Assembly (NCBI GenBank): GCA_965219685.1
Contig: CBDCOH010000002.1
Span: 2,752,001-2,816,000 of the forward strand
DNA from: Candidatus Spongiisociaceae bacterium
Lineage (GTDB): Bacteria > Actinomycetota > Acidimicrobiia > Spongiisociales > Spongiisociaceae
DNA: 64,000 bases
Reading direction: 5' to 3'
Numbering within the stretch: position 1 is the stretch's first letter; the number at the start of each line of letters is the position of its first letter. Under the pieces are notes generated by a model that was not told the DNA's origin, did no database searches, and was given only the letters and a program-made list of their open reading frames with translations. A program made the translations under genes and the position numbers. Positions 58,913 to 63,161 of the stretch are shown here, one piece after another.

Positions 58913-59704
58913 TCATCCGGCGAGCCGATCGGCGTTCCTCTCGTCGCGCCATGCCAGCCATTCGCCGAGTCCGCCCAGGTCGTAGGCCGGCCCGTTCACC
59001 GCCAGCGCGATCTGGGTGACGCCGGCTGACAGCAGATCGTCGGCATGGTCGATCTCGTCGAGTTCGGCCCCTCCCGCCCGTTCGACCTCGGACGGATCCC
59101 GACCTGCCGCCACGCACCACTCGTCGAGGATGCGGCTCTTGCGGCGCATGAGGTCTCCGTCGCCGAAGCCGTGCCAGACGTCCGCGTAGCGGCCCGCCAA
59201 CCGGAGGGTGTGCTTCTCTCCCAGCCCACCTATGAGAATGGGGATCCGCCGGATCGGCGGAGGATTGAGCCGGCCCAGCCTGCGCTTGATCCTGTACAGG
59301 CCCGCTTCGAAGTCGCGCAGGCGGCCGCCGAAGGTTCCGAACGGGTACTCGTACTCGGTGTAGTCCCGCTCGGTCCAACCCGCCCCCAGACCGAGGATCA
59401 ACCTGCCTTCGCTTATGTGGTCCACGGTTCGAGCCATGTCGGCCAGCAGATGGGCGTTGCGGTAGGAGTAGCAGGTGACCAGAGCGCCTATCTCCACCCG
59501 CTCGGTCACCTCCGCCCACGAGGCCAGCATCGTCCAGCACTCGAAGTGCTTCCCGTCGGCAGGGCCGGAGAGGGGGAAGAAATGATCCCAGTTGTAGATG
59601 ACGTCGGCGCCCATCTCCTCGGCGCGTACGGCCGCCGACCGCAGGTCACGGTAGTCACCGTGCTGGGGATAGATGTGCACCGCGATCCGGACCGGGCGGG
59701 TCAT
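58913..59704 (-). CDS. LLM-class F420-dependent oxidoreductase (MSMEG_2906-like)
   Basis: NWDHFFPL, HFECWTML, YRNAHLLADMARTVDHIS, GRLNPPP. Confidence 0.85.
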   Translation of the reverse strand: MTRPVRIAVHIYPQHGDYRDLRSAAVRAEEMGADVIYNWDHFFPLSGPADGKHFECWTMLASWAEVTERVEIGALVTCYSYRNAHLLADMARTVDHISEGRLILGLGAGWTERDYTEYEYPFGTFGGRLRDFEAGLYRIKRRLGRLNPPPIRRIPILIGGLGEKHTLRLAGRYADVWHGFGDGDLMRRKSRILDEWCVAAGRDPSEVERAGGAELDEIDHADDLLSAGVTQIALAVNGPAYDLGGLGEWLAWRDERNADRLAG

Positions 59705-59747
59705 AAGCACACCCCCCGCCCTAACGGTGCCGGGCTGGCCGGTCCCA

Positions 59748-60389
59748 TCACGTCACCGCGGGCGGGACGCCGCCCGGGCGGTCTCCGAACTCGGGCGGCT
59801 CGGTCCGGGTCCGCTTCAGCTCCCAGAAGCTGGGCGTGCGGGTGGCCTCCACGACGATGTCCCAAAGCCGCAGAGACTCGTCGGCGGGCGGGACCTTGGT
59901 GATTACCGGGCCGAAGATGCCCACCCTCGCGCCCTCGCAGTCGTCCATCGCGATGATCGGCGTTCCCACATCCTGGCCCACCAGATCGAGGCCCGCGTCC
60001 ATGCGCGCCCGGATCTCCGTGTCCCAGGATGCGTCGTCGAACGCACCGGCGTGAGTTGTGTCCAAGCCACTGCCGGACAGCACCTCTCCCACGTCGAAGT
60101 CGAAGAGTTGCCGGTCGTGATGGATCCGGGTCCCGAACCCCCAGTAGGCGCGGAAGACACCCTCGTTGCCGTATTCGGTCCTCACCGACTCCATCACCCG
60201 CAGCAGACGGTGGGTCCGCAGCGACGCTGCGTAGCGGTCCGAGCCCGGATCGGGCCGGTTCTTGAACAGGAGACTGATCGGCTCCCACTCGATGCTCAGG
60301 TCCCTGACCGGAGACACCTCGTCGACGACCCACCGGGCCGTCACCCAGCACCACGGTCAGACGGGATCTACCCAGAAGGAGATGTTCAT
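59748..60389 (-). CDS. Rv2466c/DsbA-like mycothiol-dependent reductase with in-frame UGA (probable selenocysteine, UPWC)
   Basis: MNISFWVDPV-UGA-PWCWVTARW...VGQDVGTPII...FGPVI...FWELKRTR; AAGGA RBS; SECIS-like hairpin. Confidence 0.8.
60324..60356 (-). promoter_or_regulatory. Candidate bacterial SECIS element
   Basis: GACGGCCC-GGU-GGGUCGUC stem-loop; loop starts with G, 22 nt after the UGA. Confidence 0.6.
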
Positions 60390-60439
60390 CGTCCGTCCTT
60401 TCCTACACCCGGAACGGTAGCGGGACGAGCAAGGGCAAG

Positions 60440-63010
60440 CTACCCGTGGGATTCCGCTTGGGCCGTCAGGGCCTCCGTAACCGGCCCCGTCTCCCGTTCG
60501 CGCATCATCACCATGGCCCGCAACCGTTCGAGTTTCTGCTCGAGCGCCTTGGCCGCATGCGGTAGCGGGTTCTCGGCGAAGAAGGTACCGACCTCGGACG
60601 CGACTTCGGGACGCGATAGGGCGGGAAGGCCCTCGATCATGCGGGAGTGGGTCATCGGAGGGAGACCGGCCGACATCGCGGGCCACTTCTCCGTCAGCCG
60701 CTCCCACGCGTAGGGTCCCGACACGCGATTGGCCAGCATCCTCCCCAGAACCCAGGTGGTGTCCTGGTTGCGGATGGTCCCGTCGTCCATGAGACCCAGG
60801 GTGCGGTCCACCGCCTCCGGGTCGTCGAACGAGGCCAGCGCTCGCAGGTACTTCATCGCCTCCTGTGGGTTTGCGGCATCCTTGTGCCTGGCCAGGAAGG
60901 CCCGGTAGGTGGAGGCATCCCCGTGGGCGGCGCACACGAAGATGCATGCGGATCCCACCTCGGGGTCGACCGCGGTCGGCTCCGACAACAACCGCTCCCA
61001 CGTGCTGCGAGCCCGGTCGACGGTCTCCTGGTCGTTGGCGAGGCAGCCCATGGCGGTAATGATCCGGCCACGCAGGCGCCGCACCAGGTCGCTCTCGCCC
61101 TCCGGCGGTCGCCACCCCAGGCGGTCCAGGACCGGTGCGGCGAGGCCGGACACCCAACGCTCGTACCGGGGACGGACCCCACTCGAGACCAGGTGATGTC
61201 CGATGCCGGCGGCCCCGCCCAGAACGGCGCCCCAAACCGCCTGCTCCGTCTCGCCGGCGAACGACGGCGCCAACGTCATGAACGACGGCGCCCCTGCCTG
61301 TCCGGACTCCACGAAGGCCCATGCGTCGTCCGCCACCGCGAAACGCTCCAGCGGGTCCAGTTCGTCGAGCCGGGCGAGGAGAGCCGCCTGGAGTGACTCC
61401 TGGTAGAGCGTCCGGTAGAACCCGTATCCTGCGGCGTTGGCGACCACCCAGTCGACCGGACCGCCGGTCGGGATGACCGCTTCCGGACCGTCGAGCAGCG
61501 CCTTCGTCTCGAAAGGCTCGCCGCCGGCACTTCCCCGGACCCGGACCGGGACCTTCCAGAGCGAGGAGTCCGAAGGATCGGGGATCAGCAGGAACCGGCC
61601 CTGGCGGAGGGCCACGCCTCCGGGGACGGCCCTTACCGACACCTGGGGATAGCCACCCTGGAGGATCCAGGTGTCCATGATGTCGCCCACCGGCCATCCG
61701 GAGGCCTCGTCGAGACTTCGCCACAGATCCTCGGTCTCGGTGTTGGCGTAGGCATGGGCCCGCAGGTAGGCGCCGACTCCACCGCGGAAGGCCTCCTCGC
61801 CGACGTGCTGCTCCATCATGCGGAGAACCGCGGAGCCCTTGCCGTAGGTGAGGGCATCGAACATGCCCTCCGCGTCCTCGGGCGAACGGACCTCGTACTC
61901 GACGGGGCGGGTGCCGGCCAACTCGTCCACCTTGAAGGCCCAGGGCCGCTCCACAGCGACGAACTCCAGCCACCGCTTCCACTCCGGACGGTAGGCGGCG
62001 GTGGCCTTCATCTCCATGAAGGTGGCGAAGGCTTCGTTCAACCAGATACCGTTCCACCACTTCATGGTGACCAGGTCGCCGAACCACATGTGCGCCAACT
62101 CGTGGCCGATCACGTCCAGGACCCGCATCTTCTCGCTGGTGGTGGCGGTGGTCTCGTCGACCAGCAGTACCGACTCGCGGTAGGTGATGCAGCCGAGGTT
62201 CTCCATCGCCCCGAAGGCGAAGTCGGGAATCGCCACCATGTCCACCTTGTCGCCCGGGTAGGGAATCCCGTAGTAGGAGGCGAGGTAGTCCAGGCAGAAC
62301 CGGCTGCAGGCGAGGGCGAACCCGGTCAGGTGCTCCTTACCCCTCGGTGCGATGATGCGGAGGGGAACGCCGTTGACGTCGATGGGTTCGGTCGCCTCGA
62401 AGGGACCCACGACGAAGGCGACCAGGTACGTGGACATCTCGATCGTGTCGGCGAAGGTCACCGCCACTTTCCCGTCGCCCGCCGGCGCCCTGGCGGTCTC
62501 GGCGCCGTTCGAGACGGCCATCAGGTCCCCGGGCACGACCAGGGTGACGCCGAAGGAGGCCTTGAAATCCGGCTCGTCCCAGCAGGGGAAGGCACGCCGG
62601 GCGTCGGTGGCTTCGAACTGGGTGGTGGCTATGACCTGCTCGCGGCCATCCACATCTGTGAAGGTGGAACGGTAGAAGCCTCTCAACTGGTCGTTGAGGA
62701 TCCCGCTGAACCGGCAGTGGAACTCGGCCGGACCCTCCGGGACCTCTCCTGCCAATGTGAGGACCGCCCGTTGCGCCTCCTCGTCGTACTCCACGCCGGC
62801 GCCCACCCGGCGCCCGTCACCGACGACGAACCAGGCCTCGTGGATGTCCAGTTCGATGGCGTTCAGCACCACCCGGTCGGTGGCCCCGGTCACCTCCACC
62901 TCCACTGCCTCGGTCCCGCTGAAGGTGGCCGCCTCGAGGTCGGGCTCCAAGCGAAGGCGGTAGTGCCTGGGCACCACGTTGCGCGGCAGCCGGTACGGGT
63001 CCTCGTTCAT
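60440..63010 (-). CDS. M1-family aminopeptidase with ERAP1-like C-terminus
   Basis: TQFEATDARRAFPCWDEP, GAMEN, HELAH..WLNE, YGKG. Confidence 0.93.
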   Translation of the reverse strand: MNEDPYRLPRNVVPRHYRLRLEPDLEAATFSGTEAVEVEVTGATDRVVLNAIELDIHEAWFVVGDGRRVGAGVEYDEEAQRAVLTLAGEVPEGPAEFHCRFSGILNDQLRGFYRSTFTDVDGREQVIATTQFEATDARRAFPCWDEPDFKASFGVTLVVPGDLMAVSNGAETARAPAGDGKVAVTFADTIEMSTYLVAFVVGPFEATEPIDVNGVPLRIIAPRGKEHLTGFALACSRFCLDYLASYYGIPYPGDKVDMVAIPDFAFGAMENLGCITYRESVLLVDETTATTSEKMRVLDVIGHELAHMWFGDLVTMKWWNGIWLNEAFATFMEMKATAAYRPEWKRWLEFVAVERPWAFKVDELAGTRPVEYEVRSPEDAEGMFDALTYGKGSAVLRMMEQHVGEEAFRGGVGAYLRAHAYANTETEDLWRSLDEASGWPVGDIMDTWILQGGYPQVSVRAVPGGVALRQGRFLLIPDPSDSSLWKVPVRVRGSAGGEPFETKALLDGPEAVIPTGGPVDWVVANAAGYGFYRTLYQESLQAALLARLDELDPLERFAVADDAWAFVESGQAGAPSFMTLAPSFAGETEQAVWGAVLGGAAGIGHHLVSSGVRPRYERWVSGLAAPVLDRLGWRPPEGESDLVRRLRGRIITAMGCLANDQETVDRARSTWERLLSEPTAVDPEVGSACIFVCAAHGDASTYRAFLARHKDAANPQEAMKYLRALASFDDPEAVDRTLGLMDDGTIRNQDTTWVLGRMLANRVSGPYAWERLTEKWPAMSAGLPPMTHSRMIEGLPALSRPEVASEVGTFFAENPLPHAAKALEQKLERLRAMVMMRERETGPVTEALTAQAESHG

Positions 63011-63161
63011 CACATGACTCCAGCGTTAGGGAAGAGCCGGACGGAATCTCTACGACGGGATACGATCATTCCCGTATGAGGCTCGCCGGCATCACCCTCA
63101 TGATATGCGCTGCAGGGGACGGGTTCTGCCCGGTGCGGTCCGGCCGGGAGGGGGCCGGACG

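Follow-up and report, generated by a model that had tools for sequence, protein, structure and literature searches.

Gene organization at the locus

The window, which is the whole 64,000-nucleotide stretch analysed from a Candidatus Spongiisociaceae bacterium, carries on its minus strand a reading frame that opens with an ATG (60389-60387), passes through ten sense codons (MNISFWVDPV), meets an in-frame TGA (60359-60357) and continues for 202 sense codons to a terminal TGA (59750-59748). The frame, the internal TGA, the ribosome-binding site ahead of them and the hairpin that follows had been described in the original prediction, and each is confirmed on the minus strand. The features of the locus are as follows.

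60396..60404, minus strand: ribosome-binding site AGGAAAGGA, purine-rich, 6 nt before the ATG
59748..60389, minus strand: full coding sequence of the predicted selenoprotein, 213 residues (MNISFWVDPVUPWCW...), from the frame reading, PF22234 and PDB matches
60357..60359, minus strand: UGA, codon 11, very probably read as selenocysteine (Sec) in place of the first Cys of the CPWC redox motif, from TGA or Cys in the same column of homologues and from Rv2466c structures
60348..60359, minus strand: redox motif U-P-W-C (UxxC); C11/U, P12, W13 and C14 are invariant in 18 aligned homologues
60324..60342, minus strand: SECIS-like hairpin GACGGCCC-GGU-GGGUCGUC, inside codons 16-22 (VTARWVV), from folding and comparison
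59748..60344, minus strand: truncated ORF of the standard gene call (table-11 ORF list), GTG start, 198 aa, without the redox motif
60440..63013, minus strand: M1 aminopeptidase (pepN-like), upstream neighbour on the same strand (PF01433, PF11838, PF17900)
58913..59710, minus strand: luciferase-like monooxygenase, downstream neighbour on the same strand (PF00296, 102.8 bits)

Purine-rich stretches occur at the place of the ribosome-binding site in the printed homologues as well. The stop codon of the M1 peptidase lies 50 nt before the ATG of the selenoprotein gene, and the luciferase-like monooxygenase starts 37 nt past its stop. Truncation by ORF callers had been anticipated, and the table-11 list does start the gene at GTG 60344. 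The adjacency to pepN, which had been read as a link with Mycobacterium tuberculosis, is real both here and in that species, where Rv2466c flanks pepN (passages of PMC6457555). Only 27 of 105 homologous loci share it, however, and all of these belong to the window's own family, which makes it weak evidence of orthology, and it was not relied on as such.

Protein family and characterized relatives

Read through the internal TGA, the product matches PF22234 (Rv2466c-like) with 127.7 bits against a cut-off of 27 and covers profile positions 1-180 of 180. PF01323 (DSBA) is passed marginally (27.5 bits against 25.6) and is also carried by many full-length homologues in precomputed annotation; none of the NCBIfam models matches the protein. 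Structures 4zil, 4nxi and 5xur in the PDB align over residues 4-202 with E values of 1.5e-38 to 5.6e-37, and U falls on the first Cys of CPWC. Judged from these matches, the product is a full-length Rv2466c-like DsbA-fold reductase, and the proposed family with a UxxC motif is borne out by the PF22234 score and by the position of UPWC on the CPWC of 4zil and 4nxi, the redox motif that opens the first helix in this family.

Rv2466c of M. tuberculosis is a DsbA-like, mycothiol-dependent reductase and nitroreductase, also known as mycoredoxin-2, that receives its electrons from the mycothiol/Mtr pathway (described in passages of PMC6178380). It shares with the protein studied here PF22234, the position of the DPxCPWCW motif and a C-terminal FxELKRTRTEPPxF block. 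The two differ in the first Cys of the motif, which would be Sec here, with a SECIS-like hairpin encoded just after it, and in the reductant, which is mycothiol/Mtr for Rv2466c and may or may not be the same here. NCgl2478 of Corynebacterium glutamicum belongs to a DsbA-mycoredoxin cluster with a CPxC motif (as described in PMC8280269, the likeness being one of description). It is a mycothiol-dependent DsbA-like Cys enzyme with CPFC, and some Acidimicrobiia homologues of the gene studied here likewise read CPFC, or UPFC.

TGA and cysteine at the active-site column

A six-frame search of 41 related genomes yielded a homologue in 25, and in 21 of these, down to 59% identity, the match contains one TGA. 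All 21 TGAs share a single column, that of U-P-W-C, and Cys occupies it in the four homologues free of stops. Scanning named genomes gave 568 confirmed relatives, of which the best 80 were used, all from Acidimicrobiia or unclassified Actinomycetota metagenome-assembled genomes (MAGs) to judge by record titles; the active-site column is TGA in 75 of these 80 and Cys in five. Both sets together give TGA in 96 loci (Sec forms hereafter) and Cys, as TGC or TGT, in nine loci (Cys forms) at the same column, with the proviso that some of the 105 loci are the same genome reached by both searches. A further 72 full-length database homologues among the best 120 hits also have Cys at this position. UGA/Cys pairs among relatives had been proposed as a check on the Sec reading; they exist, and the TGA is not unique to the strain.

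Sampling across the phylum places the active-site TGA within the class. Among 201 evenly sampled genomes, 39 have a match, and all 14 TGA-containing matches besides the window's own were examined. Among these, an active-site TGA is confined to two other genomes of the same class (G129 and G183); elsewhere TGA is the terminal stop, and the motif is CPWC, CPWA or a Cys-first variant. This tally takes in the unpublished genomes G057 and G157, and no claim depends on these alone. The CPWA motif was found in four loci outside the class, from genomes of 3.1 to 9.2 Mb (L128, L129, L130 and L132 of G078, G227, G092 and G135, respectively), in which TGA is the terminal stop only; these are single-Cys motif variants. 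A second, paralogous Rv2466c-like gene, 39% identical and from the same class (L137, G183 C1:2563300-2564250, minus strand), has an active-site TGA that reads U-P-W-A, so that Sec would be kept while the resolving Cys is replaced by Ala.

TGA also serves as an ordinary stop codon in these genomes. It terminates 11 of the 21 Sec-form genes, and the selA, selB and pepN frames are open without an in-frame TGA. Contigs of four runs from four studies have no other letter at 60357-60359 among the differences listed; the check is a weak one because it draws on contigs rather than reads. Extra contigs cover 60322-60377, which spans the redox motif and the hairpin, at depths far above those of the flanks in all four metagenome runs, and contigs of one run (X1) break at 60332-60345. 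Several co-occurring relatives with an almost identical sequence over this stretch would be expected to produce such extra contigs.

The ten codons upstream of the TGA

At each of residues 3-9 of the leader (I, S, F, W, V, D and P), between 18 and 21 of the 21 Sec forms agree, and the synonymous spelling is free, with five codons used for Ser, four for Val and three for Pro. Conserved residues combined with varying synonymous sites point to purifying selection on a protein rather than on an RNA, which argues that the leader is translated. The same residues also open the full-length Cys homologues, and the solved M. tuberculosis protein aligns from residue 4.

A SECIS-like hairpin within codons 16-22

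A spacer of 14 nt separates the UGA from a hairpin whose 5' arm is GACGGCCC (60342-60335), whose loop is GGU (60334-60332) and whose 3' arm is GGGUCGUC (60331-60324). The stem comprises 8 bp, one of them a G-U pair; the loop is a triloop, and the folding energy is -12.2 kcal/mol. The stem length and loop are as originally predicted; the distance of 22 nt given with them is that from the UGA to the loop, whereas the stem itself begins 15 nt past the UGA. In the published bSECIS model the loop has 3-9 nt and carries a G within its first two positions, for the most part as G and then G or U; the stem has 4-16 bp, the UGA-to-loop distance is 16-37 nt and the minimum free energy (MFE) is -7.5 or lower (Fig. 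2 legend of PMC13188914). The element in the window agrees with this model in loop length, stem length, loop G, spacing and MFE. It departs from the consensus in that its triloop is very short and its sequence is fixed across a whole bacterial class, the latter because the element doubles as codons for VTARWVV.

Comparison across loci is more informative than the single fold, which is no better than shuffled sequences (73 nt, z = -0.93) and was left out of the evidence. Loops across the 96 Sec forms are GUU in 60, GGU in 22 and AGGUG in 14, and within the same 19-nt window an MFE of -7.5 kcal/mol or lower is reached by 95 of the 96 Sec forms versus two of 15 Cys forms. Over the 21 Sec forms of the related genomes, mean codon entropy is 0.28 bits in codons 16-22 versus 1.04 bits over 108 comparable columns elsewhere, a value tied for the lowest among 113 sliding windows. 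Although their codons are four-fold degenerate, Val16, Thr17, Ala18, Val21 and Val22 are spelled almost invariably as GTG ACG GCC ... GTC GTC, whereas Val7 and Val25, outside the hairpin, use all four codons. Part of this nucleotide conservation reflects protein constraint because the hairpin codons also encode the conserved VTARWVV; many Cys forms, however, have the same or nearly the same peptide spelled with other codons.

Pairing within the stem is also largely retained. Among the 79 distinct 51-nt segments of the 96 Sec forms, 97.6% of stem cells are in standard pairs versus 16-62% when the 3' partners are slid. Stem-compatible changes comprise G-C to G-U at two pairs and C-G to U-G in six distinct sequences, and a GCC to GCU change retains a U-G pair in the stem. 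L106 has G-C to A-U double changes at both of its wobble-wobble pairs, and L078 has one such change at a single pair; a U-C mismatch is present in the stem of another Sec form (L121), and the closing pair is opened (CGG to AGG) in 11 of the 79 distinct sequences, in which the loop becomes AGGUG. Covariation is thin, with three double-change cells in two pairs, and 21 of 500 shuffles attain the covariation score. Evidence for the hairpin comes mainly from synonymous-site constraint and from the contrast with Cys forms, and the comparison across sequences shows that it is no product of chance.

A different small hairpin, CCCACC...GGUGGG, lies in the same 19-nt window of two Cys forms (L041 and L042, genus g3) from the clade that is sister to the Sec clade of the gene studied here, with energies of -8.4 and -8.8 kcal/mol. 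It may be a remnant or due to chance.

Selenocysteine machinery of the source genome

In the source genome (4.42 Mb, two contigs, completeness 96.7%), selA (435.7 bits) and selB (322.7 bits) are neighbours, and selD (366.9 bits) and a tRNA-Sec (77 bits, ARAGORN anticodon tca, UCA) are also present; all four exceed their curated cut-offs. The search for this machinery, which had been suggested along with the original prediction, thus recovered each component. Two of the genes lie outside the window at the following positions.

G000 C2:2823808-2823898, plus strand: tRNA-Sec (L001), about 7.8 kb past the end of the window
G000 C2:2564589-2565512, minus strand: selD (L019), with an in-frame TGA

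The single in-frame TGA of selD is at GAGU-ASK, the known active-site position. At 26 nt beyond it lies a 7-bp hairpin, GGCGCAG-GUC-CUGCGCC, of the same small type as that in the reductase gene, and selD is itself a predicted selenoprotein in the source genome.

The tRNA-Sec gene is 11.4 kb from the reductase gene. A distance of about 7.5-12 kb between the two recurs in many relatives, the Cys-form genomes G009 and G014 among them; it looks like conserved synteny and not like a functional link. Of the 41 relatives, 39 have a selA match that exceeds the cut-off, and a strong tRNA-Sec turns up across the whole set, Cys-form genomes included; these tallies take in the unpublished genomes G028 and G039, on which no claim depends alone. 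Machinery that extends across both kinds of genome does not separate Sec-form from Cys-form genomes, and its co-occurrence with the TGA was dropped as evidence for that reason.

A probable selenocysteine-containing reductase and alternative readings of the TGA

These observations are best accommodated by a single selenoprotein gene at 60389-59748 on the minus strand, which would encode a 213-residue cytoplasmic thiol-disulfide reductase with a DsbA fold, Rv2466c-like and with a UPWC motif. We regard this reading, drawn from sequence comparison, as very probable. Support for the original prediction of a Sec-containing Rv2466c-like reductase comes from the pairing of Sec with Cys, the conservation of the N-terminus, the constraint on the hairpin, the presence of the machinery and membership of the family. 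None of the three findings that it had named as contrary to it was made (a lack of Sec machinery, TGC or TGT at the codon among the contig differences listed, or a TGA unique to the strain).

Three other explanations of the TGA may be weighed against these data. The UGA could be a true stop, in which case the functional product would be the 198-residue protein from GTG 60344 and the ten codons upstream an unrelated leader. This is how the table-11 ORF list calls the gene (59748-60344), and 43 of the best 120 public database entries are called in the same way. The resulting product, however, would be devoid of the entire redox motif, which is invariant in the family, and the supposed leader is conserved as protein, free at synonymous sites and aligned with the N-terminus of Cys homologues and of Rv2466c; moreover, the TGA column is Cys in every homologue that does not have TGA. 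We therefore consider termination at this codon very improbable. At the other extreme, an error of sequencing or assembly has nothing in its favour: the same TGA is found in 96 loci from independent assemblies, and the contigs of four runs from four studies have no other letter among their listed differences, which reduces the chance of an error to an almost negligible level.

The codon could also be read through by a near-cognate or suppressor tRNA that inserts Trp or Cys, and not by Sec-tRNA(Sec). Nothing specific speaks for this mechanism. A full Sec machinery is present, a hairpin that conforms to the bSECIS model is conserved only in TGA forms (although two of 15 Cys forms also reach the energy limit), and TGA terminates 11 of 21 of the same genes. 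The recoded position is, in addition, exactly that of the redox Cys, which is the usual site of Sec. Suppression by another tRNA is consequently given the same very slight probability as a true stop.

Under the Sec reading, translation would start at ATG 60389, and UGA codon 11 would be decoded by Sec-tRNA(Sec) delivered by SelB, with SelB held by the mRNA hairpin that begins 15 nt downstream of the UGA within the VTARWVV codons. By analogy with Rv2466c, U11 as a selenolate would carry out the attack on substrate disulfides or mixed disulfides, leaving a selenenylsulfide for Cys14 to resolve. The enzyme might then be returned to its reduced state by mycothiol with mycothione reductase, as is the case for M. 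tuberculosis Rv2466c, or by another system. In this scheme the actual insertion of selenium, the binding of SelB, the chemistry and the choice of reductant are inferred.

Source of reducing equivalents

The enzyme had been described as mycothiol-dependent at the outset, and here the wording needs to be weaker than originally stated. In the source genome MshD is over its cut-off (171.5 bits versus 163.1). MshA-like (417.8 versus 462.5) and Mtr-like (591.5 versus 635.65) matches are full length and far above paralogues, but under their cut-offs. A separate MshC was not found in this 96.7% complete genome, where the sole match to the MshC model (283.8 versus 485.1) is a gene that scores 468.5 bits as cysS, and the mycoredoxin profile TIGR02200 has no match there either. 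With completeness at 96.7%, one gene may simply be unassembled. Mycothiol dependence is thus a property carried over from the M. tuberculosis enzyme and is unproven for the protein studied here.

Another possibility is that the selenoprotein is not mycothiol-dependent and draws for its recycling on thioredoxin reductase or thioredoxin, or on another low-molecular-weight thiol. The cysS identity of the only MshC-model match, the empty TIGR02200 search and the sub-threshold scores of the MshA-like and Mtr-like genes all favour this alternative, whereas MshD above its cut-off, the full length of the MshA-like and Mtr-like matches and their distance from paralogues, the potential for an unassembled gene and the use of mycothiol and Mtr by the characterized homologue (passages of PMC6178380) weigh against it. 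We consider a reductant other than mycothiol to be a substantial possibility, with a probability of about one in three.

Evolution of Sec and Cys forms

A tree of 177 rows (96 Sec and 81 Cys, 171 of them different) was built from an alignment that excluded the Sec column and the hairpin codons. This tree requires 15 Sec/Cys changes versus a mean of 58 for shuffled labels, and at least five of the changes are forced by well-supported branches. The window gene belongs to an all-Sec clade of 24, whose sister is a Cys clade of five. Most of the Cys rows were drawn from a protein database in which Sec forms are truncated and were on that account left out; the proportions of Sec and Cys are not representative, and the root of the tree is not secure. 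Since one hairpin is common to all Sec clades, it is simpler to suppose that Sec arose once and then gave way to Cys repeatedly, and we infer this history on that basis.

A broader interpretation may be entertained tentatively, as one that we consider rather unlikely in its entirety: a class-wide selenoprotein of Acidimicrobiia that has gone unrecognized, with one origin marked by the shared hairpin in the VTARWVV codons, at least five reversions to Cys, a second Sec paralogue with UPWA and perhaps, where MshC and mycoredoxin are not recognizable, a reductant other than mycothiol.

Relationship to known selenoproteins and implications

Selenoproteins with UxxC on a DsbA-like fold have been in print since 2005, and the gene described here opens no new principle. 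Nine 'DsbA-like' UxxC sequences (COG2761) were reported from the Sargasso Sea in 2005 (passages of PMC1088965), members from Anaeromyxobacter, Desulfovibrio and Desulfotomaculum followed in 2006 (passages of PMC1794560), and DsbA-like selenoproteins were counted in 41 organisms in 2016 (passages of PMC5029168); a 2026 review tabulates the group as 'form 1, PF01323, UxxC' (passages of PMC13188914). UxxC selenoproteins with a thioredoxin fold, DsbA-like ones included, are the commonest bacterial kind in the cited surveys, as far as their passages describe. The gene studied here resembles form 1 in having UxxC on a DsbA fold and in passing PF01323 marginally (27.5 versus 25.6). It differs in origin, as the published members named in the cited passages come from the three genera listed above and from marine metagenome reads, and the likeness is one of domain and motif only. 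The passages concerned with form 1 link it neither to Rv2466c nor to Acidimicrobiia. The gene is a further member of the UxxC DsbA-like selenoproteins and possibly a distinct subfamily.

The Acidimicrobiia form may already be contained within the 2016 counts or in BSepDB. Supplements to the 2016 survey list 15 selenoproteins for Ilumatobacter coccineus, 10 for I. nonamiensis and seven for Candidatus Microthrix parvicella, with families not named in the parts concerned (PMC5029168). Our literature searches found no work that joins Rv2466c with selenocysteine; passages of one paper on Acidimicrobiia selenoproteins name no DsbA, and none of the papers listed for selenoprotein, selenocysteine and mycothiol together is relevant by title or abstract.

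Public annotation of the family is affected by the truncation. Among the best 120 public protein hits, 43 start with MTARWVV... exactly past the motif and five start later, whereas 72 are full length with Cys. Where NCBI sources give a name to these truncated or full-length records, it is 'disulfide bond formation protein DsbA' or 'DsbA family protein'; the truncated records describe an enzyme without its active site. This annotation error recurs across an abundant class of marine, freshwater and sponge-associated bacteria.

A further question is what reduces the enzyme in genomes in which neither MshC nor mycoredoxin is found and, with it, what low-molecular-weight thiol the lineage uses. For the Rv2466c/mycoredoxin-2 family, the loci described here would provide natural Sec/Cys pairs at close evolutionary distance, with sister clades that differ at this residue. 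Such Sec and Cys sister clades would be suitable material for measuring what selenium buys in a DsbA fold.
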